Positions 1,892 through 61,653 of a stretch of 64,000 nucleotides of DNA are shown one piece after another. The notes beneath the pieces were generated by a model, which did no database searches, was not told the origin of the DNA, and saw only the letters and a list, made by a program, of their open reading frames with translations. Both the position numbers and the translations under genes were made by a program. This DNA comes from Isurus oxyrinchus (lineage: Eukaryota). Location: contig JANJGN010000150.1 of NCBI GenBank assembly GCA_026770705.1, forward strand, positions 124,001 through 188,000, written 5' to 3'. Numbering within the stretch: the stretch's first letter is position 1; the number at the start of each line of letters is the position of its first letter.

Positions 1892-1935
<44 letters not shown>

Positions 1936-4610: not shown

Positions 4611-6132
4611 TGTGTGTGGCTGTCTCTCTGCCTGTCTGTGTGAGCATGAGTGTGTCTGCCTGCGCGAGCGTGTGTCAGTGTGAACATATGTGAGTGTGTG
4701 TGTGTGTCTGAGTGAGTCTATNNNNNNNNNNNNNNNNNNNNNNNNNNNNNNNNNNNNNNNNNNNNNNNNNNNNNNNNNNNNNNNNNNNNNNNNNNNNNNN
4801 NNNNNNNNNNNNNNNNNNNNNNNNNNNNNNNNNNNNNNNNNNNNNNNNNNNNNNNNNNNNNNNNNNNNNNNNNNNNNNNNNNNNNNNNTATTGTTGCATC
4901 TTAATTATTAATGTTATTTAAAAATAGTGATCACACAAGCCTGGTTTCTAAGGAAATGAAACTGCCAACAATTTAGAGTAAAGTGAAACGTACAGGAATA
5001 ATCTATTTATTTTGAGCTGATGATATATAATTATACATGAGGCATGTTGTTAATTTCAAACATCATCTGAAATATGGCAGGTCTGACAGAGCAGCTTTCC
5101 CTCAGCGCTCACCCTCCGACAGTGCAGCACTCCCTCAGTACTGACCCTCTGACAGTGCAGCACTCCCTCAGTACTGACCCTCCGACAGTTCAGCACTGCC
5201 TCAGTACTGACCCTTTGATCGAGCAGGGTCTCCCTCAGTACTGACCTCCTGACAGTGCAGCACTCCCTCAGTACTCACCCTCTGACAGTGCAGCACTCCC
5301 TCAATATTGACCTTCCAACAGTGCAGCACTCCCTCAGCACTCCCTCACTGGGGAGAGTCCATCTGGTTTTGAGCTGTAACCTTGAGATTGTTTGAAAACC
5401 CCAACCTGCTGTCTTGGAGAGAGAGAGAGAGAGTGAGTGCGTGTGTGAGAAAGAGAGACAATGTGTGTGTGAGAGTGACAGTGCGTATGTGTGCGAGAGA
5501 GAAGGATAGAGAGAAAGAGAAAATGTGTGAGAGAGCAAAAGAGAGGTAGAGTGTGTACGCATGAGAGAGTGAGGTAGCTGAATTGTGTGAGAGAGAGAGT
5601 GTGTGTGAGAGAAAGGGAATGTCTGTGTTAGAGAGAGAGCTTATGTGTGAGAGAGAAAGATAGAGAGAGAATCTGTGTGTGTTAGATAGTGTGTGTGTGA
5701 AAGAGGGAGTGTGTATGTGAGAGAGCGTGTGCATGAGAGCGTGTGTGTGTGTGTTTGAGAGAGAGGGTGTATGTGTTAGAGAGAGGGAGTGTGCGAGAGA
5801 GGGTGTGCGTGTTTGAGAGGGAGTGTGTGTGTTTAAAAGAATGAACAAGAGAAAATGTGTGTGTGTGTGTGTGTGTGTGTGTGAGTGTGTGTGTGTGTTT
5901 GTGTGTATGTGTGTATGTGTGTGCATTCTGACTGAGTCGAGTTCACAGTTTCACACGTTGCTAGGGACCACTTTTCCACCTCTCTGTCAGACTGTGTGTA
6001 TCTGACAGCAGGTCAGGCAGAAATAGTCCAGAATGCGCTGTGGTTTTGTAGCATTGAAACAACGACAGGAACTAAATGAGTGCTGCACCAAATAAAGACA
6101 TGGAGTTACCACACCAAAAAACCACGTGACTT

Positions 6133-6452
6133 CCCCAGTTTCACATCTCCCTCAAACACAGAAAAACTGGGTTAACACTGACCCTCCTCCCAGAGCCAGT
6201 TCACCTCGTGTCCGATGCAGTCAAGAGAGGAAGATCATCTCTCCTCCGATCCTGGTAAACTGAACATTTCCAGAATTAGATCAGATCCCTGAAGTGTCTC
6301 CAGTTAGTCATTCATCTGACAGGATTGACTCTACAACCCTGGGGACTCATTCTCCTGTAAGTAAAACACTTGCTGCTCCTGTCAAATCTCTTCTGTATAG
6401 CATGGTCTCTGGATGTCCCAGAACACTTTACAGTTGAGTTCACCCTTTTTTC
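6133..6452 (+). repeat. ~320-bp direct copy of ~38778-39097 (inverted relative to ~3400-3650)
   Basis: Near-identical CCCCAGTTTCACATCTCCC...GAGTTCACCCTTTTTT. Confidence 0.9.
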
Positions 6453-6680
6453 GAAGTGTGGTTACTGTTGTAATGTAGGAAACGCAGCAGCCAATTAGCG
6501 CACAGCAAGCTCCCACAAACAGCAATGTGATCATCTGTTTTTGGTGATGTTGGTTGAGGGATAAATATTGGTGCCAGGACACCGGGGAGAATTCCCCCTT
6601 GCTCTTCCTCCAAATAGTGGCTGTGGGATCTTTCACACCCGCCCGAGAGGGCAGACGGGGGACTCGGTTTAGTGTCTAAT
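6452..6680 (-). mobile_element. Deu-domain-like SINE fragment
   Basis: Same sequence family as 36720-37340 (TTGAGGGATAAAT...GAGAGGGCAGA). Confidence 0.55.
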
Positions 6681-7279
6681 ATTGGACTAATCTCCAGGCG
6701 AGGTTGGCTGGATGGATTATTGACAAGGTCCATTCACCCTGTAAAGAGTTTCTCTGGTTTGAAATACCCGATCAAACATCGAGTTCTGTGTCTAAACCTT
6801 GTGTTGAAAAGACACCTTTCCAGCTCTTCACCTGCCATTAGCTTGTTGAGTCTTCACATGCTCCGTCTGTCCGTGACCAACCCCTCTTAGCTCATCCTTT
6901 CCTTGTCGTACATCGAGCTGTTCATCCTGACGGGTTCCATCCTTCCCAGTAACACTCCATCTCCGACATCAAACTAACTCCCAACACGTTGATGAATTGT
7001 ATGGATTCCAGCGTCAGTTGGTTCTGTCTGAGGCTGTTTCTCTGATCGGGGACCGAGCTGTTCTGAATGGACATTGTGTTCAGCAGTTCTTATTGCAGAT
7101 CAGGCTGTTCAACCGATGCTGCTGTTCACTGAGGTGACTCCGATTCTACATTCACACATTAATGATCTCATGTCCAGCAGCAAACATCTGAATGAAGCCA
7201 GGTTCAAGAAAAATCCCAGCTGCTTGATCCGACAGTTATCTGTTCAGGCATGGCCCCTTGTTCCAAATAACAAACATTA

Positions 7280-7445
7280 TTTAAAAATAGTCATCACATG
7301 AGCCTGGTTAACAAGGAAATGAAACCATGAACAATTTGCAGTAAAGTGAAACGTACAGGACAATCTATTTATATAGAGCTGATGATTTATTTTACACGAG
7401 ACATGTTGCTAATTTCAAACATCATCCGAAGTATGGCAGTTCTGA
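7280..7445 (+). promoter_or_regulatory. Duplicated ~165-bp block (other copy ~4918-5088) with EICE-like and IRF-like motifs
   Basis: GGAAATGAAAC (7315, 4952) and AAAGTGAAAC (7343, 4980) identical in two otherwise diverged copies. Confidence 0.35.
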
Positions 7446-7906
7446 CAGTGCAGCACTTCCTCAGTACTGACCCTGTGACAGTGCAGCACTCCCCCAGTAC
7501 TGACCCACTGACAGTGCAGCACTCCCTTGGGACTGAATCCAGAGATACAAGGAAGAGACTGAAGAGCTGACGATTCAGCTGAATTTAAAAACAGAGGCAG
7601 TTACAGAATCACAACAAGTTTACAGAGCAGAAGGAGGCCATTCAGCCCCTCGAGCCTGTTACACAGGAACTGGAGCGGCCATTCAGCCCCCTCGAGCCTG
7701 TTACACAGGAACAGGAGGAGGCCCATTCAGCCCCTCGAGACTGTTACACAGGAACAGGAAGAGGCAATTCAACCACATTCTTGACACCAAAGGGGTTACC
7801 AGTTTGCTTACGGTGGAAGACAAAGAGTTGGTTTCTCAAATTCACACAAACCAACTCACATTTTGACTCACAGTGACACATTCACCCTTTCTAATTAAAT
7901 ACACAG

Positions 7907-7991
7907 AGGGAGGAGCACAGGAAGAGGTCATTCAGCCCAAGCAGAGCGTGTGGGCAGTTCCTCCCCAGGCGAGCAGTCGGACAGGTCCTGG
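7907..7991 (+). other. Gene A 5'UTR exon (85-nt module)
   Basis: Ends at strong donor GG|GTAAGT; same module lies ~400-450 nt upstream of the leader exon in genes B and C. Confidence 0.6.
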
Positions 7992-8424
7992 GTAAGTAAC
8001 GGAACGATTGGAATTCACTTCCACCACCAACACCGTCCTTTGTTGATGTTGTGACTTTATAAAGACAGATTCCAATGATTGATGCCTTTGAAAGATTTCT
8101 ACTGATTATTGAGATCTGGGTGTGAGGCTCAAGTCAGTTGTACAGAACATCTTTCTTGCTCAAGGGATGAGGAAAATGGGATGCCCTGAGCTGGTGAAAG
8201 GTGCTATAGAAATGCAAGCCCTTCATTGTTTTTCATTCTTAAAGCCTTTTAACTCTCTGCAGAACACCTATCATCCCACAGGGAATCAAATTAGTCTTTG
8301 AAGTCATTGTCTAAAAGGAGTTCTGATCTCTCGAGATCTGTTGGTCAAGAGGTGAGGTCTCATTAACTCCTTTCTCTTTCAGAGTTTGAGAGTGAGAAGT
8401 GGATGGAATATCTGGGAGTGGACA

Positions 8425-8464
8425 ATGATCGGGAAATCTTACTTCATCCTGTCACTTCTCCAAG
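8425..8464 (+). CDS. Gene A leader exon (MIGKSYFILSLLQ)
   Basis: ATG 8425, phase-1 donor CAAG|GTAATA; joins V exon to give signal peptide MIGKSYFILSLLQVGLS-QEW. Confidence 0.85.
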
Positions 8465-11400
8465 GTAATATCATCATCAGATTTAATGTTAATAGTCTCT
8501 GTAAAGAATCATTCTTATTGAGCTGTGATTGGGAACTGATTCAGCAGTGAGCCAGTGTACAAACTCAGACCAAGTCCCATTCACCCATCACCCCTGTGCT
8601 CACTGATATACACTGACTCCCTGTCTGACAGCAGAATTGGAAGTGATCAGAGATCTCAGAGAGTTGTAGGGACTGGAGGACGTTACAAAGTTCAGCAGAA
8701 TTGTAGCAGCGAGAGCAGGATCTTAAAATTCAGGTGCTGTCAGACGTTGGTCAGTGAGCGATGGGGAGTGATGGGTTGAGTAGAGAAGCAAAGATAAAAA
8801 CTGGGGGATGAAGTCTATCCTGCTGCGAGGTCTCCGATAGCAATGGCCTGAAATTAGTGTCCTTTGCTGCCTTTATTCAAAATTGCACATGAAGACAACA
8901 CAGCAGCTCCTAGAATAGACAGGCTGTTCAGTGTCACACTTCCTGTCCATTCTCACCATGCTAGATACTTCAATAAGGGAGCAAGATAACTGAAAGAGAG
9001 AAGGAAGGTAAAGCTGTCTGTGTGTAAAGCTTTCAAATATTCTGAGATATCATGAGTGTCTCTGATCTGCTGCAGAGTTTAAATTTCACAGAATCTGAAC
9101 ACTTTGCAGCTCAGAGAGAGACCATTGCCTCACTGCCTGAAAGGCCGGTGGAAGCAGATTCAACAGGAACTTTCAGAAGGGGAACTGGATAAATACTTGA
9201 AGGGAAATTTGCAGGGATGTGCGAAAGGTGCTGGAGAGGAATTGGGAAAGAGCCAGCACATGCACGATGGGTCAAATGAGCTCCTCCTGTGTTGTATCAT
9301 TCAACAATCAGACAATTTAAGACCCTTGTCAGCAAAACTTCAGAATCCTGCTGAATCACAGATGTTTCTGAAGGACAGGGAACAAGAGGTTTCTGGTAGC
9401 AGCGTTTCATGTGGGGCCCAGTTCAGTTTGAACAAATAAACAACACCATCTTTGAAAGTCATGAACCCACCACTGCGGCACCTCCGACACATGCAGAGCT
9501 CAGGCTAGAGGCACTTTGTTAGTGTGTTTCACAGTGTCTGCTGGAGTAGGGTCAGTGCTGAGCTTGGGGACAAGTCAGTCTACAATGCTGCATCGGAATC
9601 AACAATACAAAAATATGGGGTTTGGATCAGAAATAATCCCTTAGACAATGAGGATCCAAAGAGATTCCTCAGACAGTGAGGATCCAAAGAGATTCCTTAG
9701 ACAATGAGGGTCCAAAGTGATTCCTTAGACAATGAAGATACAAAGTGCACCAATCAGATTGAACCAGATTAGCTAATCAGCTGTGTTGAAGAGCAGACAG
9801 GAATGTTAGGCTAATTAGTGATTCATGACGGTGATAATGGGGGGAGTTCTGAGGGCTCCTAATCCATTGTCCTGTCTTGTAAATCAGCACTGAATGGATC
9901 TCAATGGGTGGGTCTCGTAGACACTGTTTTGGGTGGAAGACTGGCTTCACTAAGGGGAAGCGGTAGCAGAGAGGTATTGTCACTGGGCTAGTATTCCAGA
10001 GGCCCAGGGTGATGCTCAGGGGCCCTGGGTATGAATCCCATCAAAGCAGATGAATGGGATTAAAAAGCCTGGTTCACTGATCCCCTTCAGGGAAGGAAAT
10101 CTCCACCCTTACCGAGTCTGGCCTACATGTCACTCCAAACCCACAGCAATACAATTGATTCTTAAATGCCTCTGATGGACATGGGATGGGTAATAAATGC
10201 TGGGCACATCCCATGAACGGATAATTTGAAAAACACATGACTTGGAGACACTGTGTTGGGTGGAAGACTGGCTTCACTAAACAGGGTCCTGAGGACCATG
10301 AGCCAATGTAGAATGAACTTGTCCACTCCTGGGTCCAGGATTCTCTTCCATCCATTGTGAAACCTTGGGGAGATCCCTGTGTGTCCTGTAGATGGTCCAC
10401 ACTGCAGCCACTGTGCCCCAGTGATGGAAGGGGTGGATATCGAGTCTAGTGGATCTACAAACCATCCAGAGTTAAATATTGATATTTCTCTCCCCAGTTG
10501 GACTGTCACAAGAGTGGAAAGGTGACACACCACGAGAGGTGACAGCGCAGGAAGATTCGTGTGTACAGATTCCATGTCATTACAGTTATCCATCACATTT
10601 GGAAAGCCAACCACGAGTCGGAGTCTGGTTTAATAATGAGAATCAGATTCCTGGATCTCCCATTGCCTTTCACTCCAAGGATCACAGTCACGAGTTACCA
10701 CGGTTCCACCATCGGACCCGGCTGTCTGGAGACCTGAAAGATGGCGACTGTTCCCTGATTATAAACAACATCAGACGGGAAGATGCAGGACCTTATTTCT
10801 TCAGGATAGAATTTGACAGCAGTAATAGTTACAACTACTATCCTGTAACCCAGCTTCAGGTTTCTGGTAAGTGCTGTGTTATAATTACTCAACAATTCAC
10901 ATTCAACACTCAATGGGAATTAACACAAACTGTGACGTTTACATATTAACACAAAACACAGCTTATTATAACACACTGTCTGATTCTCAATAACCTGCTG
11001 ATAGCTTCCAGTTCAGTCCTAAAGCAACCTCTAATACTCACTTTAATATCAATGATTAAATGTATTGACTGTGTCCATCAAAGTTATCAGGTTATCCACT
11101 CTCATCGATCTCTCTAATCCTGTTTAAAATAATTTCCTGATCATTGTAACCTCTCAGTTCTGATATCATCCTTGCAAAGGTGCTTTCTCTTGTGGGACTG
11201 TGGTTTCTATTTGAACTGATGCTTCACGTTATATTTCTCTAAAAGGATCCATTCTCCGTCTGTTAGATTTCACAGATAAACCCACGATATTCCCTGCTGA
11301 AATTATTGCAGGAAAGCGTGTGGATGTAAGCTGCACCTTCAACACAACGTGCAATGGAACAGCAGCACCTGTCTTAACCTGGGACACTCCCACTGACGTA

Positions 11401-14400
11401 CCTGGATCAGTCTCAAACACTGTAACTCAGCATGGTGTCACTCTGACCTATACTTCTGTTCTGACCCTGATCCCATCACTCAAACACCACAGACACAATC
11501 TCAGCTGCAGAGTGAGATATCCATCTGTTTCATCGGAGCAGACCCTCGTACTAACTGTACAATGTAAGTATGGACATCCTTCATTATACATTCGCTGGAA
11601 CAGTCTATATTGTGCACAGCAGGATCCCATAGAAAGGTATTCTGATGAGAACCAGATCATCTGTAGTTTAGGGAAAAACACTGACCAGAAAACAGTTAAT
11701 GACAGTTTCTGAACATTAACACTGGAGCTTTTTTTTCCAGCCAAGAAGCTGATAGAGCAGAGCATCATTCACAATATACTAACCCCCTGACAGTGCAGCA
11801 CTCCCTCAGTACTGACCGCCTGACAGTGCAGCACTCCCTCAGTACTGACCGCCTGACAGTGCAGCACTCCCTCAGTACTGATCCTCCAACAGTGCAGCAA
11901 TCCCTCAGTACTGACCCTCCAACAGTACAGAACTCCCTCAGCACTGACCCTCTGACAGTGTAGCACTCCCTCAGTACTGACCCTCTGACAGTGCAGCACT
12001 CCCTCAGTACTGACCTGCTGAAATTGCAGCTCTCCCTCAGTACTGACCCTCTGACATTGCAGCACTCCCTCAGTACTGACCCTCTGACAGTGCAGCACTG
12101 CCTCAGTACTGACCCTCCAATAATGAAACAATCCCTCAGTACTGACTCTCCGACAGTGCAGCACTCCTTCACTGCTAACCCTCCAACTCTGCAGTGCTCC
12201 CTCAGGACTGAAAATCCAACATTTCATATCTCCCTCCTGACTGACCCTCTGAAAATACAACAGATCCTCGGTCGAGTCCTTCAAACAGTGCTGCACTTCC
12301 ACAGTACTGAATCTCCCCCCCACCCACAGTGCAGCACTTCCACAGTACTGAACCTCTGACAGTGCAGCACTCCCTCAGTACTGACCCTCCCACCTGCAGC
12401 ACTCCCTCAGTACTGACCCTCCCACATGCAGCACTCCCTCAGTACTGACCCTCCCACATGCAGCATTCCCTCAGTACTGACCCTCCCACATGCAGCACTC
12501 ACTCAGTACTGACCCTCCCACAGTGCAGCACTCCCTCAGTACTGACCATCCCACATGCAGCACTCACTCAGTACTGACCCTCCCACAGTGCAGCATTCCC
12601 TCAGTACTGACCCTCCCACATGCAGCACTCACTCAGTACTGATCCTCCCACAGTGCAGCACTCCCTCAGTACTGACCCTCCCACATGCAGCACTCACTCA
12701 GTACTGACCCTCCCACAGTGCAGCACTCCCTCAGTACTGACCCTCCCACATGCAGCACTCCCTCAGTACTGACCCTTTGACAGTGCTGCACTACCTCACT
12801 ATTGGCTTTAAACTAAATAGTGTGTGGGGCGAATGTTTCTGGAGAGGGTATATGTACAGTTACAAACCAAAAGGATTTATTAGCATTGCAGGATAGCTGT
12901 TTTGGCAATGATACCCAGTGTGTGACAGGAAGGGACACAGTGTCCAAACATAAAAATACATCAGCAAATAGTGTCAGAGGGGGGGAAATGATAAAAAGAC
13001 AAAATTAATGGCTCTTTACTTAAATGCACAATGTATTTGGAATGCTGACCTTTATTTCAAAGGGAATGGAGTATAAAAATAGGGAAGTCTTGCTAAAACT
13101 TTACAAGGCACTAGTTAGACCACACCTAGAATACTGTGAGCAGTTTTGGTTCCCTTATCTAAGGAAAGATGTACTGGCATTGGAGGCAGTCCAGAGAAGG
13201 TTCACTAGGTTGATCCCAGTAATGGAGGGATTTTCATATGAGGAGAGGTTGAGTAGGATGGGCCTGTACTCATTGGAGTTTAGGAGAATGAGAGCTGACC
13301 TTATTGAAACATATAAGATTCTTAGGGCGCTTGACAGGGTAGATGCTGACAGGTTGTTTCCCCCTGTGGGAGAGTCTAGGACCAGAGGGCATAATTTCAG
13401 AGTAAGGGGTCACCCATTTAAGACAGAGATGAGGAGTTTCTTCTCTCAGAGGGTAGTGAATGTGTGGAATTCTTTACTGCAGAGAGCTGCAGAGGCTGGG
13501 TCATTAATTATATTCAAGGCTGAGAGACACAGTTTTTTAATCAGTCAGGGAATCAAAGGCTATGGGGAAGAGGCAGGAAAGTGAAGTTGAGGATTGTCAG
13601 ATCAGCCATGGTGTCATTGAATGGCGGAGCAGAGTTGATTGGCCGAATGGCCTCCTTCTGCTCTGACGTCTTGTGGTCTTATGGTCTTATCACCCTCCAA
13701 CAGTGCAGAGCTCCCTAATTACTGACCCTCCGACAGTGCAGCACTCCCTCAGTACTGACCCTCTGACAGTGCAGCACTCACTCAGTACTGACCCTCCGAC
13801 AGTGCAGCACTCCCTCAGTACTGACCCTCCAACAGTGCAGAGCTCCCTAATTACTGACCCTCCAACAGTGCAGCACTCCCTCAGTACTGACCCTCCGACA
13901 GTGCAGCATTCCCTAAGTACTGACCCTCCGAGAGTGCAGCACTCCCTAAGTACTGACCCTCCAACAGTGCAGCACTGCCTCAATACTGACCCTCCAACAG
14001 TGCAGCACTGCGTCAATACTGACCCTCCAACAGTGCAGCACTCCCTCAGTGCTGACCCTCCGACAGTGCAGCACTCCCTCACTACTGACCCTCCGTCAGA
14101 GCAGAGCTCCTAATTACTGACCCTCCAACAGTGCAGCACTCCCTCAGTACTGACCCTCCAACAGTGCAGCACTCCCTCACTACTGACCCTCTGACCGTGC
14201 AGCACTCCCTAAATACTGACACTCTGACAGTGCAGCACTCCCTCAGTATTGACCCTCCGACAGTGCAGAGCTCCCTCAGTATTGACCCTCCGACAGTGCA
14301 GAGCTCCCTAATTACTGACCCACCGACAGTGCAGCACTCTTTCAGTTCTGACCCTCCGACAGTGCAACACTACCTCAGTACTGACCATCCAACAGTGCAG

Positions 14401-15798
14401 AGCTCCCTAATTACTGACCCTCCGACAGTGCAGCACTCCCTCAGTACTGACCCTCCGACAGTGCAGCACTCCCTCAGTATTGATCCTCCGACAGAGCAAC
14501 ACTACCTCAGTACTGTCCCACCGACAGTGCAGCACTCCCTCAGTACTGATCCTCCAACAGTGCAACTCTCCCTCAGTACTGTCCCACCGACAGTGCAGCT
14601 CTCCCTCAGTACTGACCCTCTGACAGTGCAGAACTCCCTCAGTACTGATCCTCCGACAGTGCAACACTCCCTCAGTACTGTCCCACTGACAGTGTAGCAC
14701 TCCCTCAGTACTGATCCTCCGACAGTTCAACACTCCCTCAGTACTGTCCCACCGACAGTGCAGCTCTCCCTCAGTACTGACCCTCCGACAGTGCAGCACT
14801 CCCTCAGTACTGATCCTCCGACAGTGCAACACTCCCTCAGTACTGTCCCACTGACAGTGTAGCACTCCCTCAGTACTGATCCTCTGACAGTTCAACACTC
14901 CCTCAGTACTGTCCCACCGACAGTGCAGCTCTCCCTCAATACTGACCCTCCAACAGTGCACCACTCCATCAGTACTGAACCTTCAACAGTGCAGCACTCC
15001 CTCAGTACTGATCCTCCAACAGTGCAGCACTCCATCAGTACTGATTCTCCGACAGTGAAGTCCTCGCTCAGTACTGACTATGCGGCAGTGAAGCTTTCAC
15101 AGTACCCACCCACCATCAGTACAGCAGGTCCTCAGTACTCACCCTCCAACAGGGCAGCACTCCCTCAGTACTGACCCTCCAACAGTGCAGCACTCCCTCA
15201 GTACTGAACTGAAGAGTCTGCCTGAATTATGTGCTTTGTGGTGAAGGATTGATATTACACCTTTAACATTGTCAGGGTCTCTGAAAGTGCTTCACAGTCA
15301 ATGTAAGTAACTGATCTTTATTTGTTTTTAGATGCACCACAGAATCTCTCAATTACTTTTCATGATATGATTAACGCTTCATCGATCAATATAATTGAGG
15401 GGAATTCTGCAGTGATAATCTGCTCTGTCGAGAGCTTCCCAGCTTCTAACCTGACGTGGCGACATCTTAATGTCCCAATGAACAGAACAAGTTCCAACAA
15501 TGAGCTGTGGTTGGTGATTCCTCACGTTACATCCAGAGACACTGGAGACTATCAGTGTGTGGCAGAGAATGAACATGGAGCAGTGGAGGGGTTCATAACC
15601 ATCACTGTAGAACGTGAGTTAACACAAATTGCAATAACACTCCTCTCACATGCAGACGCACACACACACACATAGACATACACATGCACACACACTCACT
15701 CATGAACAGATGTATACAAACAGGCACACGCACACATGCGCAAACACATACACACACACACACGCACAAACAAACACACTCACATGTGCAGAAACACG

Positions 15799-15843
<45 letters not shown>

Positions 15844-18800
15844 ACACACACACACATGTGTGAGGTTCACTCTCCTCTCTCAGGGCTGCACTGGAGTCTC
15901 GGTGTCAGCCCTGAATCTGTGTTGAAGGAAGGTAAACTCCAGATCAACAAGACCCTGAATTGGATGAGCAACCTCCTGAACAGTGAATTGTAGATTTACC
16001 CCTCAGTGCTCCATCAATCAAATACAATTCATTGCCTGTCAAGCCCTTGGCGAATTCCTGAGGATGTGAATGGAACTTTCTTTCATTCTAGATTGACAGC
16101 ACCTCAACTGGTGGGGGAATGCAACTGCAGTGTGACAGTTTACATAGGCAGTGTCCATTATAAATGTGACAGAGGAACTTATTCTGAGGAAAGGTGCCTG
16201 GAAATGCATTCAGACATCAGATACAAAGAGATGATACATGGAGTCTTGCTGTGCACTGTGCTTGCTCACTCTAAAATCTTTATATGTTTATAGGCGCACC
16301 ACAGAATCTCTCATTTACTTCGCTTGAAATGATTAATGCTTCATCGATCAATATAATTGAGGGGAATTCTGCAGTGATAATCTGCTCTGTCGAGAGCTTC
16401 CCAGCTTCTAACCTGACGTGGCGACATCTTAATGTCCCAATGAACAGAACAAGTTCCAACAATGAGCTGTGGTTGGTGATTCCTCACGTTACATCCAGGG
16501 ACACTGGAGACTATCAGTGTGTGGCAGAGAATGAACATGGAGCAGTGGAGGGGTTCATAACCATCACTGTGGAACATTAGTTACACAGAATTCAACATTC
16601 TGTTTTTATTAGCTCATGGGATGTGGGTAGTGTTGACAAGACCAGAAATCATTGCCCATCTGTAACTGCCCCTTGAGAAGGTGGTGGTGAGCTGCCTTCT
16701 TTAACCACTGCAGTCCATGTGGTGTACGCACACCCACAGTGCTGTTAGGGTGGGAGTTCCAGGATTTTGACCCAACGACGGTGAAGGAATGGCCGATATA
16801 GTTCCAAGTCCCAGGGCAGACCACCACCTCATGTTCACCTCCAAGTCACACACCACACTGACTAGGAACTGTCTCGGTGGAAGAGGTTAAGGGTTTGGAA
16901 GGTGCTGTCGAAGGAGCCTTTGTGAGTTGCTGCAGTGCATCTTGTAGATGGTGCACACTGCTGCCACTGTGTGCCAGTGGTGGAGGGTATGAATGTTTAT
17001 GCTGGTGGATGGGCTGTCGATCAAACAAGCTGCTCCTGGATGGTGTCGAGCTTCTTGAGTGTTGTTGGAGCTGCACTCATCCAGCCAAGTGGAGATTATT
17101 CCATCAGACTCCTGACTTGTGCCTTGTCGATGGTGGACAGGCTTTGGGGAGTCAGGAGGTGAGTTATTCACCGCAGAGTTCCCAGCCTCTTACCCGCATT
17201 TGTAGCCACATTATTTCCTGTTGCCGGGCTGTTGCCAGGGCCAATAGCCTTTGCTGTATCCAGTATCATCAGCTGATTCCTGATGTCACGTGGAGTCAAT
17301 CGAATTGTCTGAAAGCTGACATCTGTGATGCTGGGACCCTCTGGAGGAGGCCGAGATGGAGCATCCACTCAGCACTTCTGGCTGAACATGGTTGCCAATG
17401 CTTCAGCCTTGTCGTTTGCACTGATGTGCTGAGCTCCCCCATCATTAAGGATGGGGATATTTGTGGAACATCCTCCTCCTGTTAGATCTTTAATTGTCCA
17501 TCACCATTCATGACTGGATGTGGCAGGACTGCAGAGCTTAGATCTGACCCGTTGGTTGTGGGATCGCTTTGCTCTGTCTATAGCATGTTGTTTCCGCTGT
17601 TTGGTGTGTATGTAGTCCTGTGTGTCACCTCAGCAGCTTGGCACCTCTGTTATATGTGAATCCTCCTTATAGAAACCTGCATGTACATGGATATTATCAA
17701 TAAATATTACATAGATAAATGTTGTTTGTATAGACCTTTCATGCATAGACAATATCACTTCACAAGTTCAGAATTACTACATGTACATAGGGAACCATTC
17801 TCAAACTGTACCGGAGTCATTCATTGGCTGATTTTACAGGGCGAGATTCCAATGAATGGAAAGCAGGATTGCTTGGACCGGGAATCTGTTTGAGTGTTGG
17901 ACTGAGTGGATTCTTCATCTTCAATTGTGTGAGAAAGTAAGTGTGAAGCTTTAATTGGTTGTTTTTGAACATGTTTTCTTCAAACTTCTCTCCTTATAGA
18001 AAGAACTTGCATTTCTATAACACCTTTTAGAATCGAAAACCCTTCACAGCCCCTGAAGAGCTTTGATGTTCACTCATTGTTTAACATCTCATCCAACACT
18101 CAATGTTTCACAATTCAGTCCTGTAACAGGCAGTGTTGACCTGGACCATAAAATACCTTGTGACTTCCTGAGGATGTGAAAGGGGATATATAAATGAAGA
18201 CATTTCTTTTGTTAGTGAATGCAATCTCTTTCCATTTTCAGTGTCTAACTCACTCTCTCTTACCTCCACTAATGCTCTCCTTCTCATTCTCTCTCTCTCT
18301 CATTCACTCTCTCCCCAATCTCCACTAATGCTCTCCTTCTCATTCTCTCTCTCTCTCATTCACTCTCTCCCCAATCTCCACTAATGCTCTCCTTCTCATT
18401 CTCTCTCTCTCTCATTCACTCTCTCTCCAATTTCCACTAATGCTCTACTTCTCATTCTTTCTCTCGTCCTCTTACACAATGTTCAGTATCTCACATTTTT
18501 AAGGAGCGCTGAGCAACATCTGCTCCTTCAGAAGATCCACCTCAACACCTGGAGCAAGCAGTGAATTGAAACTCGCTCACCAACTGCTCAGCTTTACACA
18601 GGAATCACGTCACAGAGTCAGGACACAAAGGGTTAACAGTTTGCTTACAACACAACACTAAGGCCCTACGTTTCAGTGAAAGGGTTTTCACAATTGTTCC
18701 CCAATTCCTCATTTTGTCTCACAGAGACACATCAACCCTTTCTCATTAAATACACAGAGGGAGCAGCACAGGAAGAGGTCATTCAGCCCAGTCAGAGCGT

Positions 18801-20544
18801 GTGGGCAGTTCCTCCCCAGGCGAGCAGTCGGACAGGTACTGGGTAAGTAACGGAACGATTGGAATTCACTTCCACCACCAACACCGTCCTTTGTTGATGT
18901 TGTGACTTTATAAAGACAGATTCCAATGATTGATGCCTTTGAAAGATTTCTATTGATTATTGAGATCTGGGTGTGAGGCTCAGGTCTGTTGTACAGAACA
19001 TCTTTCTGGGTAAATTGTGCAGACAGGTTACACACAGTCTACAATTATATTCCCTCGGGTCTAGAAGATTAAGGAGTGATCTAACTGAGGGGTTCAAAAT
19101 GATTAAACACTCGATAGGGTCGATAGAGAGAAGCTATTCCCATGGGTGGGGGTGGTTGGTGGGGGTCGGGTGGAGTCCAGAACAAGGGGGCTGGAACTTC
19201 AGATTGGAGCCAGGCCGTTCAGGGGTGATGTCAGGAAGCACATCTTCACACAAAGGGGAGTGGAAATCTGGAACTTTCTCCCCAATAATCAAACCCAACA
19301 CCGAATACACATCATGTTGATTGTCACTCTGTCCATTTCCATCTCTATTACAGAAGAGAGGCGAGGGGAAAGCAGGAATCAAAACGAACCACCGTGTTGA
19401 TGAATATCGAGGTCCTGTTTATGAAAACTGTGAGCGTGGTTGGGCTTTGAGGAATCAGGTGAGTCACACACCACAGGATCCCCAGCCTCTCAGCTGCTCC
19501 AGTAGCCTGGTTATTGATATGGCTGCTCCAGTCCTGTATCTGCAATGTTTTATACAGTCACTCCCAAACCCAACCAAACTCACACCCAACACCATTCAGA
19601 ATCAATAATCAAACCCCGTTCAGTATCAATAATCAAACCCCGTTCAGAATCAATAATCAAACCCCGTTCAGTATCAATAATCAAACCCCATTCAGAATCA
19701 ATAATCAAACCCCGATCAGAATCAATAATCAAACCCCGTTCAGAATCAATAATCAAACCCCGTTCAGTATCAATAATCAAACCCCGTTCAGAATCAATAA
19801 TCAAACCCCGTTCAGAATCAATAATCAAACACTGTTCAGAATCAATAATCAAACCCCGTTCAGAATCAATAATCAAACACCGTTCAGAATCAATAATCAA
19901 ACACCGTTCTGTATCAATAATCAAACCCCGTTCAGAATCAATAATCAAAACCCATTCAGTTTCAATAATCAAACCCCGTTCAGTATCAATAATCAAACCC
20001 CGTTCAGAATCAATTATCGAACCCTGTTCAGTTTCAATAATCAAACCCCGTTCAGAATCAATAATCAAACCCCGTTCAGAATCAATTATCAAAACCTGTT
20101 CAGAATCAATAATCAAACTCCGTTCAGAATCAATAATCAAACCCCGTTCAGAATCAATTATCAAAACCTGTTCAGAATCAATAATCAAACTTCGTTCAGA
20201 ATCAATAATCAAACCCCGTTCAGAATCAATAATCAAACCCCGTTCAGAATCAATAATCAAACTCCGTTCACTATCAATAATCAAACCCCGTTCAGTATCA
20301 ATAATCAAACCCTGTTCAGTATCAATAATTAATGTATCTATTGTGGGTGGAATTTTCGATTTGGATCAATAATACTAAACACTGATCACTCTGATTGTCA
20401 CTCTGATCATTTCTGTTTCTATTACAGAAGAAAGATGAGAAGGATCTGGAAATGAAATCTAACCGCGGAGTCAGTCCTGATACAGATGATGATCTTTACG
20501 CAAACTGTGATTTTGCCAAGGATTCTGTTTATGGGAATTTATAA
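8425..20544 (+). CDS. Siglec-like gene A (spliced CDS). Membrane form join(8425-8464,10498-10866,11267-11563,15332-15613,17840-17936,18758-18842,19354-19458,20428-20544), 463 aa; alternative secreted form ends in exon 16294-16580, 424 aa
   Basis: All junctions are AG/GT with compatible phases (1,1,1,1,2,0,0). V domain has Siglec hallmarks (SCVQIPC, DCSL, YFFRIE); C2 domains, TM and a Tyr-motif tail follow. Confidence 0.85.
9954..10245 (+). mobile_element. tRNA-derived SINE with 35-bp flanking duplication
   Basis: tRNA-like head; flanked by AGACACTGTkTTGGGTGGAAGACTGGCTTCACTAA at 9919-9953 and 10246-10280; absent from paralogous introns of B and C. Confidence 0.75.
10498..10866 (+). CDS. Gene A V-set sialic-acid-binding domain exon
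   Basis: 369 nt, ctccccAG|...TCTG|GTAAGT; [28 protein letters not shown] with essential Arg (AGG 10803-10805). Confidence 0.95.
11267..11563 (+). CDS. Gene A C2-set domain 1 exon
   Basis: 297 nt; [10 protein letters not shown]...VSCTFNTTC...LTW...SVLTLIP...LSCRV; extra Cys (TTC) typical of the Siglec V-C2 interdomain bond. Confidence 0.95.
11785..12800 (+). repeat. 33-bp tandem array (CAGTACTGACCCTCCGACAGTGCAGCACTCCCT)n
   Basis: Head-to-tail units without spacers; same family at ~5100-5345, 7440-7530, 23430-23705, 30143-30595, 37105-37335. Confidence 0.95.
13027..13690 (+). mobile_element. CR1-type LINE 3' fragment (RT C-terminus plus 3'UTR)
   Basis: LYKALVRPHLEYC...VQRRFTRLIP...SYEERL...DLIETYKIL...RTRGH...FFSQRVVNVWNSL. 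Confidence 0.92.
13690..15210 (+). repeat. 33-bp tandem array
   Basis: About 45 units of the same repeat. Confidence 0.95.
15332..15613 (+). CDS. Gene A C2/I-set domain 2 exon
   Basis: 282 nt; YAPQNL...ICSVESFPASNLTW...DTGDYQCVAENEHG; tttttAG| acceptor, |GTGAGT donor. Confidence 0.93.
16294..16580 (+). CDS. Gene A duplicated C2 exon, donor lost, ends in in-frame TAG (terminal exon of a putative secreted isoform)
   Basis: Near-identical to 15332-15613; intact acceptor tttatAG|; end reads GAA CAT TAG instead of GAA C|GTGAG. Confidence 0.75.
16600..17650 (-). mobile_element. CR1/L2-group LINE fragment (antisense)
   Basis: Decayed AQVRS.MEYSPLGWMSAAPTTLKKLDTIQ motif and tail, shared with 32090-32410 and 43130-44190. 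Confidence 0.8.
17699..17704 (+). terminator. Candidate intronic poly(A) signal for the secreted isoform
   Basis: First AATAAA I find after the 16580 stop, and it lies before the TM exon. Confidence 0.35.
17840..17936 (+). CDS. Gene A transmembrane exon (RRDSNEWKAGLLGPGICLSVGLSGFFIFNCVRK)
   Basis: 97 nt, ttttacAG|...GAGAAA|GTAAGT; same length, phases and homology as gene C TM exon 47934-48030. Confidence 0.85.
18265..18460 (+). repeat. ~56-bp CT-rich tandem repeat, about 3.5 copies
   Basis: CTCCACTAATGCTCTCCTTCTCATTCTCTC... repeated. Confidence 0.85.
18758..18842 (+). CDS. Gene A cytoplasmic exon 1 (KGSSTGRGHSAQSERVGSSSPGEQSDRYW), a copy of the 5'UTR-exon module
   Basis: 85 nt, open, phase 2 to 0, exactly bridging TM exon and next exon; acacAG| acceptor, |GTAAGT donor. 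Confidence 0.6.
19354..19458 (+). CDS. Gene A cytoplasmic exon 2 (KRGEGKAGIKTNHRVDEYRGPVYENCERGWALRNQ)
   Basis: 105 nt, ctattacAG|...CAG|GTGAGT; VYEN motif. Confidence 0.75.
19590..20330 (+). repeat. 24-bp minisatellite (TTCAGAATCAATAATCAAACCCCG)n, about 30 copies
   Basis: 8-aa periodic ORFs on both strands. Confidence 0.97.
20428..20544 (+). CDS. Gene A last coding exon (KKDEKDLEMKSNRGVSPDTDDDLYANCDFAKDSVYGNL*)
   Basis: ctattacAG| acceptor; LYANC and C-terminal ITIM-consensus SVYGNL; TAA 20542-20544; AATAAA at 21316 and 21484. Confidence 0.78.
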   Translation, partial: KKDEKDLEMKSNRGVSPDTDDDLYANCDFAKDSVYGNL

Positions 20545-23110: not shown

Positions 23111-25271
23111 ATGCTCCTAATGTACTCGAGCCTGGTACACAGGAACTGGGGAAGGCCAATTCAGCCCCTTTAGCCTTTTACACAGGAACAGGAGGAGGCC
23201 CATTCAGCCCCTCGAGCCTATAACACAGGAACAGGAGGAGGCCCATTCAGCCCACTCAAGCCTGTTACACAGGAACAGGAGGAGGCCCATTCAGCCCAAG
23301 CAGAGCGTGTGGGCAGTTCCTGTCCAGACGAGCAGTCGGACAGGTCCCGGGTAAGTAATGGATCGATTGGAAATCACGGGGGAAGTTCTGAGGGCTCCTA
23401 ATCCATTGTCCTGTCTTCTAAATCAGCACCTTAATACTGACCCTTCAACAGTGCGGTACTCCCTCAGTACTGATCCTCCAACAGTGCAGCACTCCCTGAT
23501 TAATGTCCCTCTGACAGTGCAGCACTCCCACAGTACTGACCCTCCAACAGTGCAGCACTCCCTGATAAATGTCCCTCTGACAGTGCAGCACTCCCTCAGT
23601 ACTGACCCTCAAACAGTGGAGATCTCCCTCAGTACTGACCTTACAATAGTGCAACACTCGCTCAGTAATGACCATCCGACAGTGCAGCACTCCCTCAGTA
23701 CTGACACTGGGGAGTTTCAGTCTACTCTGTGGGGCAGACGTCCCATGAATGGGGTCTTGAATCCCACAACGTTCTGACCCCCTGAATTTGGCTGTGAAAC
23801 CCACTGACCCACAGGAGAAACTCCTGGTCAATGACTGTCCTGTCCACCTCTGAGCAGAAATATCACCACAGGGTCAGGACACAAACGGTTAACAGTTCAC
23901 CAACATCTCAAAACAAGAGCTGCTCTGTCACTTTGATCCAACTTCCTCATTTTGTCTCACAGAGACACATCAACCCTTTCTCATTAAATACACAGAGGGA
24001 GCAGCACAGGAAGAGGTCATTCAGCTCAAGCAGAGCGTGTGGGCAGTTCCTCCCCAGGCGAGCAGTCGGACAGGTCCTGGGTAAGTAACGGAACGATTGG
24101 AATTCACTTCCACCACCAACACCGTCCTTTGTTGTTGTTGTGACTTTATAAAGACAGATTCCAATGATTGATGCCTTTGAAAGATTTTTACTGATAATTG
24201 AGATCTGGTGTGAGGCTCAAGTCTGTTATACAGAACATCTTTCTAGCTCAAGGGATGAGGGAAGTGCAGAGACATGAGATTTGGGATGCCCTGAGGTAGT
24301 GAAAGGTGCTATGGAAATGCAAATCCTTCATTGTTTGTCTTTCTTACAGCCTTGTAACTCTCTGCAGAGCACCTATCATCCCACAGAGAATCAAATTATT
24401 CTGTGAAGACATTGTCTAAAAGCAGTTCTGATCTCTCGAGAGCTGTCGGACAAGAGGTGAGGTCTCATTAACTCCTTTCTCTTTCACAGCTTGAGAGTGA
24501 GATGTGGATGGAATATCTGGGAGTGGACGATGATCGGGAAATCTACTTCCTCTTGTCACTTTCCCAAGGTAATATCATCATCAGCTCAGACAGATTTATG
24601 TTTAACAGTCTTTGTAAAAGATCATTCTTATCTCTTAATCTCTGTAACCTTCTGCAACTCAACCAAACAACGTCCCAGATCTCTGTGTTACTCCAATTCC
24701 GGCCACTTGACCATCCCCCGATTCCCATCACTCCAATACTGGCGGCCGGGCCTACAGCTGCCTGGGGCCTGAGCTCTGGAATTCACTCCCTAAACCTCGG
24801 GGATGGAGGAGCTCAGAGGGTTTCATTTTACTGAGAATCACCACGACCACATCACAGCTGCAGTCAGAATAGACAGAGAGTCCAGCCCTCACACTTCCTG
24901 CACAGTTTCACCATAGCAACCACAATATGGAAATTTTAAAATACTGAAAGTTAAACTGAAGCTCAAACCAGTCAGTGTAGAGAGATGAGATGTTTACACA
25001 GTTTCCCTGTGTATCTTGTAGACACTGTGTTGGGTGGAAGACTGGCTTCACTAAACAGGGTCCTGAGGACCATGAGCCAATGTAGAATGAACTTGTCCAC
25101 TCCTGTGTCCAGGATTCTCTTCCCTCCGTTGTGAAACCTTGGGGGGTTCTTTGTGTGTCCTGTAGATGGTCCACACTGCAGCCACTGTGCCCCAGTGATG
25201 GAGGGGGTGGATATCAAGTCTAGTGGATCTACAAACCTTCCAGAGTTAAATATTGATATTTCTCTCCCCAG

Positions 25272-25647
25272 TTGGACTGTCACAAGAGTGGAAAGGCGAC
25301 ACTCCACGAGAGGTGACAGCGCAGGAAGGTTCGTGTGTACAGATTCCATGTCATTACAGTTATCCAGCACATTTCATAGGGAGATCACGTGTTGGAATCT
25401 GGTTGAAAGGAATAGATGGGAACCCACAGCCTAAATGGTCTATAGCCTTTCATTCCGAGGGTCACAGTCACAGGGATCAAAGATTCCGCCATCGTACCCG
25501 GCTGTCTGGAGACCTGAAAGATGGCGACTGTTCCCTGATTATAAACAAAATCAGACGGGAAGATGCAGGACCTTATTTTTTTCAGAATATAATTTGACAA
25601 CAGGAATAGATACAACTATTATCCTGTAACCCGGCTTCATGTTTCTG
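25272..25647 (+). pseudogene. Gene B V-set exon, disabled at the essential Arg
   Basis: 376 nt; T7 run at 25576-25582 (T6 in gene C paralogs) shifts frame just before AGA; the corrected frame still hits TAA at 25590-25592 (GAA in paralogs). Confidence 0.9.
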
Positions 25648-26122
25648 GTAAGTGCTGTGTTATAATTACTCAACAATTCACATTCAACACTCAATGGGAA
25701 ATAACACAAACTGTGACGTTTACAAATTAACACAAAACACAGCTTATTATAACACACTGTCTGATTCTCAATAACCTGGTGATAGCTTCCAGTTCAGTCC
25801 GAAAGTAACCTCTAATACTCACTTTAATATCAATGATGAAAAGCATTAACTGTATTATCAGGTTATCCACTCCCATCAATCTCTCCTGTCCTGTTTAAAA
25901 GTCTGACGTATCGATAAAAGAAAGATGTGCATTTCTGCAGCGCAATTTACCACCTCAGGAGGATCCAAATCCCTTCACAGCCAATGAAATTATTCCTGAA
26001 TTGTCGTCACAGATGTTAAACACAGCAGGCAGTTTGTGCACAGCAAGATCCAACAAACCACAAGGTGATAAATCACCCAGATCACTGAGGAAATGAGAAG
26101 CCAGTGAACTCAAACCTCTGGT

Positions 26123-26153
26123 CTGATGAAGAGTCATACGGACTCGAAACGTT
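26123..26153 (+). ncRNA. Minimal hammerhead ribozyme motif in a Penelope-derived insertion (~26127-26254)
   Basis: CTGATGA-A-GAGTC-ATACG-GACTC-GAAAC-GTT: both core boxes, 5-bp helix II, palindromic AACGTT helix III; helix I weak. Confidence 0.55.
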
Positions 26154-26506
26154 AACCCTGTCTTCCTCTCCACTGATACTGTCAGACCTGCTGAGTCTTT
26201 CCAGCAATTTTTGTTTTTGTTTCAGATTTCCAGCATCCGCAGTATTCTGCTTTTAACTCCAATCTCTGGTCTGAGCCTCTTCTCTCATCCAGTGTTCTCA
26301 ATTCACATGTCTCGGAGTGAACGTGTATTAAGCTGAGAGACAGAAACACTACTGCCAAAGAGCAAGAAAATCTTTCCTGATCATTGTAACCTCTCAGTTC
26401 TGATATCATCCTTGTAAAAGTGCTTTCTCTTGTGGGACTGTGATTTCTATTTGAACTGATGCTTCACGTTATATTTCTCTAAAAGGATCCATTCTCTGTC
26501 TGTTAG

Positions 26507-26803
26507 ATTTCACAGATAAACCCACGATATTCCCTGCTGAAATTATTGCAGGAAAGCGTGTGGATGTAAGCTGCACCTTCAACACAACGTGCAATGGAAC
26601 AGCAGCACCTGTCTTAACCTGGGACACTCCCACTGACGTACGTGGATCAGTCTCAAACACTGTAACTCAGCATGGTGTCACTCTGACCTATACTTCTGTT
26701 CTGACCCTGATCCCATCACTCAAACACCACGGACACACTCTCAGCTGCAGAGTGAGATATCCATCTGTTTCATCGGAGCGGACCCTCGTACTGACTGTGC
26801 AAT
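26507..26803 (+). pseudogene. Gene B C2-set exon 1 (open frame)
   Basis: 297 nt, nearly identical to 11267-11563 and 50786-51082. Confidence 0.9.
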
Positions 26804-27129
26804 GTAAGTACCGTCATCCTTCATTCTACATCAGCAATCCCTCAGCGCTGACCCTCTGACAGTGCAGCCCATTCTCAGTATCCACATTCTAAGGCCTCTC
26901 TAAGTGCTTCACAGTCGATAGAAGTTAATTGATATTTATTTGATTATTGCTGAATGAAGAGACAAGCTGTCTAAAGTTTTCATCTCACAGACAGTATTCT
27001 CCATGGCAACACCTCCACCTATCAGAGACCACTTGCCAACCAATCAGCACTCTCTTCCCATTAAGTATAAATTGTTGTTCACTTTCTGTTGGTTATCGTG
27101 CGAACGGGCTTCTTGATTCCTGCCCTGAG

Positions 27130-27277
27130 ATCTTAATGTCCCAAAATTCAGAACAAGTTCCAACAATGAGCTGTGGTTGGTGATTCCTCACGTTACATCC
27201 AGGGACATGGACACTATCAATGTGTTCAGAGAATGAACATGGAGCAGTGGAGGGGTTCATAACCATCACTGTGGAAC
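27130..27277 (+). pseudogene. Gene B C2 exon 2 remnant (3' half only)
   Basis: Homologous to the 3' half of 15332-15613 with indels; 5' half replaced by unrelated sequence ~26948-27129. Confidence 0.85.
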
Positions 27278-28952
27278 GTGAGTGTACACAGACTTCAACA
27301 TCTCTCTCAGATTCGAACACTACACAAACGCCCTCAAACATACAGACCTAAATAGACACGTGTAGACACACATATATGACCACACACAAAGACACACTCA
27401 CAAACAAACACACTAGCACAAGACTCCCTCATGGGTTACCTGACCTCCCTCAGTACTGCACTGGAGAGTGGGCTGCATTCTGGGATTTGTGTTCCCATTC
27501 GTATTTATGGAAGAATATGGAAATTACTCGTACAAACACTCAGATGCATAGAGGCACTCGTAGATACTATCTGCTTCTCCAACTCTCTCTCTCTCCCTTT
27601 AAGGAGCTACCTGAAACCTAACCCTTTGACGAAGAACTAGTCCCAACTCCTCCTTATCTGATTCTGTGATTTCTTTTGTGTATCTGAGAGTAAAAGAGAG
27701 GTGAAGAGGTTTAGTACGAGAATTCTTGCTGGTGAAAAGCTTACATCTTGTTCTCATTATTTCCGTGCACATATTTCCCAGTATGTCCAATGCCCCTGTT
27801 TATAATGATGACTGCCTATGTAAACGTCACGCTGTAGTTACAGCCTCCCACCAGTGGTGGCATTGTAGCACTTAATCCTTGTGTTTCCCAGCTTTTCAAG
27901 CAACTCCACTTCCCAGTTTGCTACACAAGCTGTGAGTTCATCAGAATTAAATTATTTCTCAAACAGTAGATTTGATAACTCATTTTATTGAAAACTTCTT
28001 CAGTGCCTCCCTGAAGGGTTTACACTCTCCGGGAAGCAGGAATAGGCTGGATGTTGGGGAGTTCATCTTTTCCCAGAGAGTAGGGATCCTCAGGAATGTG
28101 CTGTCAGTGGGTGTGGTGGTTGCTGATTCTCTGTCACCTTCAAGAGGGATCTGGAGTGGTTACTGACTGGGGGAGAGATCATGGAAGCGGAGAATGATAC
28201 AGCACAGGAGGAGGCCATTCAGCCCATTGAGCCTGTGCCAGGTCTTTCAATGTTCTATCCAATCAGATCCACTAACCACCACTCCACCTTGCCCCCATCT
28301 TCCTCCTTCAAGTGTTTATCCAATTTCCCTTTTGAAAGTTCCTATTGAATCTGCTTCTACCGCCCTTTCAGGCAGCACCTTCCAGATCACAACAACTCAC
28401 TCTGTCAAAACAAATTCTCCTCATCTCCCCCTCCGGTTCATCAATCTGTTTCCCTCTGGTTACCGACCCTCCTGCCCCTTAAATACATCAATACTGTTCA
28501 CCTCAACCACTCCCAGTGGGAGCGAGTTCCACATTCTCCCCTCTCTCTGGGTAAAGATTGGAACTGTTTATTAAGCGGGGGGTGTAAGTCCATGGGGGAG
28601 TCCATCTCGATCCTGCCCGATTCGCACACGCGTCCGAGATGGATTTCCACCCTGCACTAAACGTTTCCAGAATTTTCTACAGCACAATCCTGTACACAGC
28701 GATGGAGAGAAACACTGGACAGGGAGTCCAACAGCACAATGATCCATTCTCACCAATGTTCCACGCTAAGGGGAAAGTTCCGATTGTCCACTCTTAGAGT
28801 GTTTCCAATGAAAACATTCATTCCACATTGAATCCCAGTGGATGGGTCAATATTACAGCAAATGTTGCAGTGATATGAAGCTTGATTGTTCAGCCAGAGT
28901 GAGAGATTGAAAGCGGAGAGTCAGTGATGATTTCTTTCTGTGTGTTCTCTAG

Positions 28953-29092
28953 ACAGTGGAGGAGAGATTCTGCACGTGATCCTGATCCTGGGAATACGAG
29001 CTGTGATATTCCTTGTGGCTGTGTTTATCACTATCACTGGAGTCTGTGTCTGGGAGAGACAAACAGTGAAAGGAAGTCGACAGACTGTTTGA
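28953..29092 (+). pseudogene. Gene B TM exon with intramembrane Arg and short tail (HSGGEILHVILILGIRAVIFLVAVFITITGVCVWERQTVKGSRQTV*)
   Basis: Strong acceptor gttctctAG|, phase 1, long hydrophobic stretch with CGA Arg at 28997-28999, TGA 29090-29092. Confidence 0.8.
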
Positions 29093-38770: not shown

Positions 38771-38844
38771 ACCCACTCCCCAGTTTCACATCTCCCTCAA
38801 ACACAGAAAAACTGGGTTAACACTGACCCTCCTCCCAGAGCCAG

Positions 38845-40484: not shown

Positions 40485-40520
<36 letters not shown>

Positions 40521-61569: not shown

Positions 61570-61653
61570 CCAGGACCTGTCCGACTGCTCGCCTGGGGAG
61601 GAACTGCCCACACGCTCTGCTTGGGCTGAATGACCTCTTCCTTGCTGCTCGCT
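61570..61653 (-). other. Gene C 5'UTR exon module
   Basis: 84-nt copy of 7907-7991 with GTAAGT donor. Confidence 0.6.

Follow-up and report, generated by a model that had tools for sequence, protein, structure and literature searches.

How does one short exon come to stand, in nearly identical form, both ahead of the start codon and behind the membrane span of the same gene? The question is raised by a 64,000-nt stretch of Isurus oxyrinchus DNA (contig JANJGN010000150.1, positions 124,001 to 188,000; hereafter the window), a 64-kb shark Siglec-like cluster holding genes A (+), B (+) and C (-). The V and C2 regions of the three genes are 88-97% alike, and the nearest annotated proteins belong to Cetorhinus and Carcharodon (110/122 for the V exon against Cetorhinus). 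The gene A V exon matches the Pfam families PF07686 (V-set, E 1e-12) and PF24518 (Ig_CD22, E 3e-9), and the exon chain follows the CD22/Siglec order of an N-terminal V-set, C2 domains and a single transmembrane (TM) segment; judged on its sequence, gene A is a Siglec-like receptor. We take its YFFRIEF, CVQIPC and CTFNTTC motifs to represent the F-strand arginine and the paired cysteines of the V and first C2 domains. The exons concerned are as follows.

8384 to 8464 (+): gene A leader exon, ATG at 8425
10498 to 10866 (+): gene A V-set exon, Siglec/CD22-like
11267 to 11563 (+): gene A C2 exon 1
15332 to 15613 (+): gene A C2 exon 2
16294 to 16575 (+): gene A third C2 exon, a 95% duplicate of C2 exon 2, with donor AT instead of GT
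17840 to 17936 (+): gene A TM exon, phase 1 to 2, 70/97 nt identical to the gene C TM exon
19354 to 19458 (+): gene A tail exon 2, phase 0 to 0, YEN motif, absent from some homolog models
20428 to 20544 (+): gene A last coding exon, with YAN, the ITIM-like SVYGNL and the stop
24490 to 24570 (+): gene B leader exon
46975 to 47056 (-): 82-nt exon that opens the cytoplasmic part of gene C; no relation to the exon under study

Several of these exons show signs of decay or change. Read-through of the third C2 exon of gene A (16294-16575) meets a stop after one codon, with an AATAAA at 17699, and this exon is likely either skipped or terminal, giving a secreted form. The gene A TM has a proline in the region of 17870-17872 (GLLGPGICL) where homologs have alanine or serine. 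Gene B (24490-29090, +) is of activating type, with an arginine in its TM from 28953 on; its leader and V exons are frameshifted, a C2 fragment is broken, and it is likely a pseudogene. Gene C has two V exons, the first of which (56159-56533, -) reads YFFGIEF where YFFRIEF is found elsewhere and so lacks the essential arginine; its tail is, by our naming of the motifs, of the canonical ITIM type.

Between the TM exon and tail exon 2 of gene A lies the exon in question, here called the module together with its flanks. Its copies and extent are these.

18758 to 18842 (+): module exon in the coding position, predicted first cytoplasmic exon of gene A, 28 aa; 85 nt, AG..GT, phase 2 to 0
18697 to 19007 (+): high-identity core of the module (60 nt upstream, the exon and 165 nt of intron), with a sharp 3' breakpoint
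18584 to 18696 (+): patchy homology of greater age to the sequence upstream of the three 5' copies (score reached by 0, 0 and 1 of 500 shuffles)
7907 to 7991 (+): 5' copy before the gene A leader exon, long acceptor at 7874
23996 to 24080 (+): 5' copy before the gene B leader exon
61570 to 61653 (-): 5' copy before the gene C leader exon, 84 nt through a 1-nt deletion
23275 to 23377 (+): partial copy, adjoined upstream by a 43-nt minisatellite and downstream by pre-V intron sequence

The earlier note had reported that the module recurs before all three leader exons as well as between the TM and tail of gene A, and blastn bears this out at about 96%: 18697-19007 matches 61714-61405 (-) at 96.1% and 18710-19007 matches 7859-8156 at 96.0%, while the longer alignment of 18604-19007 with 23862-24244 gives 87.6%. 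The partial copy upstream of gene B was likewise found, at 87.4% to the module, and is likely the remnant of a deleted gene. The exon itself is 95% identical between coding and 5' positions; over 277-278 aligned nt the coding copy shows 9-11 differences from each 5' copy and the 5' copies 6-11 from one another. Downstream, the intron sharing put at about 160 nt in fact runs to +165, where similarity to the 5' copies ends sharply; upstream, weaker but significant homology reaches some 110 nt beyond the core, identity dropping from 96-97% in the core to about 50-55% in the flank. A length of 85 nt holds for the coding copy but not for all, the gene C copy having 84. As had been claimed, the module is unrelated to the 82-nt exon of gene C: homology to 46975-47056 (-) was considered and ruled out by shuffling, since 699/1000 shuffles equal the local score and 85/1000 the global one.

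All five module copies in the window stand at Siglec positions. A dispersed, never-spliced repeat, the case that would have undone the proposal, can be rejected: the module is spliced in related sharks (below), and in X1 a true repeat at 19242 has 43 contigs where position 18791 of the module has only three. Searches of the module for other identities gave no match among 4227 Rfam families of structured RNA, no tRNA, no Pfam family for its open reading frame and no locus in a metagenome scan with a degenerate pattern for the module end; nor did it fold more stably than its shuffles (z +1.25; 178/200 as good).

Evidence from transcripts comes from runs presumed to be RNA of two related organisms, A and B, and none from this species (best word share 0.49), the implied difference between window and runs being about 2.3-2.8%. 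The junction 18842-19354 proposed in the earlier note was found in RNA-type contigs, in one of four runs from a relative: a contig of X1 joins 18842 to 19354, GT..AG, at depth 13.5. With the gene B 5' region as reference, X5 joins the module donor to the gene B leader exon (24080 to 24490, GT..AG, depth 23.4) and X1 has the equivalent joint at depth 40.2, so that this joint appears in two of four runs, from two studies. The 5' copy thus behaves as a 5' UTR exon, spliced to a leader exon that bears the ATG and, like all four full copies, having none itself. Cover of the module drops after its donor in four of four runs, with depth 0 from 18850 to 18925, and cover of tail exon 2 extends to 19458. 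Neither X9, in which module and tail exon are both uncovered, nor X4, which has no joint, was counted as evidence. A middle UTR exon at about 24351-24458, between module and leader, was considered and dropped, being skipped by both joints. X1 also joins leader to module, 24544 to 23994 (depth 15), which may represent a back-spliced circle, a skip to the cytoplasmic copy or read-through.

One further exon was revealed by X6.

6323 to 6356 (+): upstream non-coding exon, 34 nt, AG and GT ends, spliced in X6 to a 5' copy at its long acceptor

The X6 contig matching this exon bears an allele of the A and C 5' copies. The module, which had been supposed to be a first exon, is therefore not always one, and its use as an internal UTR exon in X6 accounts for the working acceptors of the 5' module. 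The other 5' copies may nonetheless be first exons, record 1 of X1 being contiguous upstream and X6 a single transcript. A donor after 6254, close to 6323-6356, suggests from its sequence a still earlier exon.

These data also bear on whether the intronic copy is kept chiefly as an internal promoter or enhancer, its coding use being incidental, a reading to which we give very little weight. Intron positions +1 to +80 are identical at 79-80/80 among the copies, above the identity of the exon, as such a role would lead one to expect, and on the minus strand, upstream, the B and C copies carry GAGGAAGT, presumably an Ets/PU.1-like site. Against this, the coding copy has GAGGAATT at the Ets-like site and the gene A 5' copy lacks the core, the module has no ATG, and one 5' copy is an internal exon.

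Coding use was sought among annotated proteins. A search with the last exon returned two proteins from nine candidates, both Carcharodon RefSeq models running from TM through the module peptide to the tail. A search with TM and tail together gave 13 matches from 87 candidates, 12 of which have the peptide directly behind the TM; the remaining one, P0017, has a short tail lacking the module. A representative search added Stegostoma and Chiloscyllium proteins, with the peptide after the TM in P0018 and P0019; P0020, one of its five matches, proved a repetitive chance match and was dropped. The peptide thus follows the TM in seven species, of Carcharodon, Cetorhinus, Mustelus, Scyliorhinus, Rhincodon, Stegostoma and Chiloscyllium, which fall in the orders Lamniformes, Carcharhiniformes and Orectolobiformes (order checked for three of the species). 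Bullhead sharks, squalomorphs, rays and chimaera gave no match in the TM and tail search or the representative search, which is weak evidence of absence. Eleven peptides from the seven species (leaving out the isoform duplicates P0001, P0002, P0006, P0008, P0013 and P0022 and the module-less P0017) are identical at 11-25 of 28 positions, are 14-28 aa long and lead into the tail in frame. Against Rhincodon, the module (14/28) has diverged at a rate similar to that of the other tail exons (18/35 and 17/38). The Mustelus protein P0011 has a module peptide of just 14 aa, in frame with the tail, as if an internal donor were used.

The TM-to-module junction and the 28-aa peptide of gene A are predicted from these homolog gene models; if it includes the module and skips the broken C2 exon, gene A comes to 463 codons, the length of Cetorhinus XP_078390091.1. 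On the same models, coding use is old, shared by three shark orders rather than lineage-specific. With the joints from relatives and the models from seven species taken together, we are highly confident that the exon serves as UTR and as coding exon alike. What had been suggested, that a non-coding exon was exapted into protein or the reverse, is therefore upheld as regards dual use; the event is old, and may have run in either direction.

The 28 residues are polar and free of motifs, and precede PVYENC, DLYANC and SVYGNL. Going by composition, they likely form an unstructured spacer holding the three YxN motifs (one of them ITIM-like) off the membrane; we take YxN to be a Grb2-type site and SVYGNL to be ITIM-like. 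The acceptor flanks of the two YxN tail exons (19314-19360 and 20388-20434) are alike at 38/47 nt, which suggests, as far as sequence goes, that the pair was born by exon duplication. A minisatellite of 24 nt x 31 lies between them.

How well the coding copy fits its position was assessed with splice scores from a rough matrix. Of the 106 AG..GT candidates in the intron 17937-19353 that are stop-free and run from phase 2 to 0, the exon at 18758-18842 scores highest. It had been held to be the only phase-compatible one; best it is, but a route from the TM straight to 19354-19429 and on to the last exon also fits, with a donor score of 0.5 versus 8.1 for 19458. Similarly, the stop-free phase 2 to 0 bridge is confirmed, but as an argument it is weak, the exon being open in all three frames: neither a stop codon nor an ATG occurs in any frame of the four copies (coding and three 5'), and since 59% of dinucleotide shuffles leave the coding frame open (10% leave all three open), an open frame alone is little evidence. 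Its phases, 2 to 0, also differ from the equal intron phases of classical symmetric-exon shuffling. The acceptor at 18758 is weak, ranking 15th of 83 AGs with a score of -0.4, and a stronger one (6.3) lies upstream at 18725, in frame and adding a TAA at 18747-18749.

18725 to 18757 (+): acceptor extension of 33 nt with the in-frame TAA; the corresponding long acceptor is used in 5'-type copies

That long acceptor is used by the 5'-type copy in X6 and in the Cetorhinus model P0035. It might be argued from these scores that the 18758 copy is skipped or mis-spliced in this species, the TM running to 19354-19429 or to 18725 with its stop, so that gene A lacks the module peptide. Both routes are phase-compatible, 6.3 well exceeds -0.4, and decay is common here, gene A having a broken donor and gene B frameshifts. 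We nevertheless consider this most improbable: the frame of the 19354-19429 alternative occurs in 0/13 homologs, RNA cover takes tail exon 2 to 19458, and the short acceptor is present in all A-type homolog models. There is also an indirect sign of the TM-to-module junction: contigs from two organisms (X1 record 2 and X6 record 25) have an end precisely at the short acceptor, as is expected where differing upstream exons converge.

In which direction, then, did the exon move? We lean, with modest confidence, to a history in which a rearrangement older than the split of the three orders made an ancient 5' UTR exon the first exon of the tail, conversion acting on it afterwards; for the direction from 5' to coding position as such our leaning is equally modest. 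Several observations argue for a 5' origin. The TM exons of genes A and C are homologous (70/97 nt) but the first tail exon of gene C is unrelated; gene A has a non-canonical YxN tail and gene C a canonical ITIM-type one; at the coding copy a stronger, stop-bearing acceptor, the one that the 5' copies use, overshadows the weak coding one; a homolog of the last YxN exon closes P0021 (Scyliorhinus torazame), in which TM and juxtamembrane part are different; and Cetorhinus models that read through into 5' modules offer a route. Repeat-derived exons, moreover, arise mostly in UTRs according to one survey (PMC2911107), and the exon is in part repeat-like.

18764 to 18803 (+): first half of the exon, similar to the unit of a 43/44-nt minisatellite and, in antisense, to the 3' end of a CR1-like repeat

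This segment matches a repeat end at 28200-28237 at 85% over 40 nt (E 1e-6 within the window), and its motif also terminates fragments of a repeat ORF, which we take to be CR1 ORF2. The 43/44-nt minisatellite built of the same motif precedes the A and B 5' copies. In the Atlas, the ORF fragment linked to the repeat fell in unnamed eukaryotic clusters only.

On the favoured history, the first half of the exon would have derived from the antisense end of a CR1-like repeat. In a tandem array, the TM exon of one gene could then read through into the 5' module of the next, and breakage of the intron behind it, at 165 nt, would have brought the YxN tail exons up to the module; an 85-nt exon with no stop or ATG in any frame would have made an instant phase 2 to 0 bridge. 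Gene conversion would since have homogenised the core of about 310 nt. Conversion is favoured because the core is 3-4% diverged where the flank homology is far older, and because the A allele at 18838, confined here to the coding copy, is present in the Cetorhinus pre-leader copy, as deduced from peptide P0023 at this single site. Sharks evolve slowly, however (PMC8455134), and a core divergence of 3-4% may for that reason need no conversion; constraint may likewise account for it.

The opposite direction, from coding to 5' position, we regard as possible but doubtful, and the same holds for its fuller version, that the coding exon came first and that an array deletion in the mackerel-shark lineage brought a copy to the front of one leader exon, and this copy then seeded all the gene heads. 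Coding use is indeed found in three orders, and 5' use is known only from the window, Cetorhinus and organisms A and B, but protein searches are blind to UTR exons, and its absence elsewhere is a matter of ascertainment. The 5' copies lie within the range of lamniform coding peptides (26/28 positions, versus 20/28 for a coding paralog), as a recent coding-to-UTR copy would, and the upstream flank of the coding copy is central, as that of a source would be, being nearer each 5' copy in most pairs (scores of 50, 67 and 32 for coding versus 5' copies; 31, 19 and 34 among the 5' copies). Conversion is, however, pervasive in the cluster, as the V and C2 figures given above attest, and would have erased such nesting. 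Slow shark rates would let one duplication suffice; a weak, stop-shadowed acceptor would be odd in a native coding exon.

The read-through step of the preferred 5'-to-coding history has its models in Cetorhinus. A search with the other two reading frames of the module gave three matches from 200 candidates, all of them Cetorhinus. These and their cluster members include the chains TM-module-module-leader, C-type tail exon-module-module-leader and, through either acceptor, leader-module-leader, all three frames being in use. Read-through from TM or tail exon into 5' modules is modelled in P0012, P0013, P0023 and P0031, and the leader-to-module joint in P0032 and P0035. Such models may stem from genuine read-through, from circles formed by back-splicing or from sequences mapped to the wrong one of several nearly identical copies. 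A bolder reading, which we offer as speculative and rather unlikely, is that the module is a universal splice adaptor joining tandem Siglec genes in RNA, with swap or loss of tails and multi-gene fusion, a single sequence having been kept by conversion for both UTR and protein since the galeomorph orders split. In practical terms, near-identical modules yield multi-gene fusion models in shark Siglec clusters, whether by read-through or as a mapping artefact, and annotation should be read with that in mind.

In read-through or conjoined transcripts, exons of an upstream gene splice to the 5' exons of the next gene in tandem; in the shark case, by contrast, the exon that is entered has three open frames and recurs as a tail exon of the upstream gene itself. 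Such read-through, followed by a single break, would give paired immune receptors a way of acquiring new signalling tails. Clustered Siglec paralogs with differing tails that are kept alike by conversion are familiar from SIGLEC11/SIGLEC16 of primates, where conversion includes upstream non-coding sequence and first exons (PMC5701461); there 5' sequence converts 5' sequence, whereas the shark tract is common to 5' UTR and post-TM coding positions, even within one gene. Chimeric or partial duplicates are known to recruit non-coding sequence, as in the AFPIII first exon, fog-2 and Sdic (PMC3449122), and there too rearrangement in a tandem context makes flanking or non-coding sequence coding. In the cases described there, the recruited piece is not reported to be kept as a spliced, near-identical UTR exon of the same genes; the shark module has both roles, its coding role in three orders. 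Exonisation of CR1 LINE and HE1 SINE sequence in non-mammalian vertebrates, mostly in UTRs and terminal exons (PMC2911107), similarly yields an exon from a repeat end; here only about 40 nt are repeat-like, the family is putative and the exon is internal and coding. The module thus appears to combine chimeric-duplicate exonisation with Siglec conversion, source and product both persisting, spliced, in one gene, and selection on translated and untranslated copies of one exon can be compared directly. A literature search covering few subscription papers and no supplements returned no description of this element.

Like CD33-related Siglecs, CD22 and MAG, gene A has a leader, V-set, C2 domains, TM and a tail with tyrosine motifs; unlike them, its tail carries three YxN motifs, one a terminal ITIM-like sequence, gene C having an ITIM pair. 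A further difference is that in Carcharodon and Stegostoma (P0005, P0018) the C2-TM-module-YxN cassette also sits behind V-domain heads of another, distant family, which by their sequences is head/tail swapping across receptor families.

The upstream non-coding exons of gene A (6132-6453) have a direct copy, 98% identical, at 38777-39098 and an inverted one at 3393-3651; no leader exon was seen after either. The window also contains an inverted duplication of 3.6 kb, in which 1-3651 and 38844-42395 are 95-98% identical.
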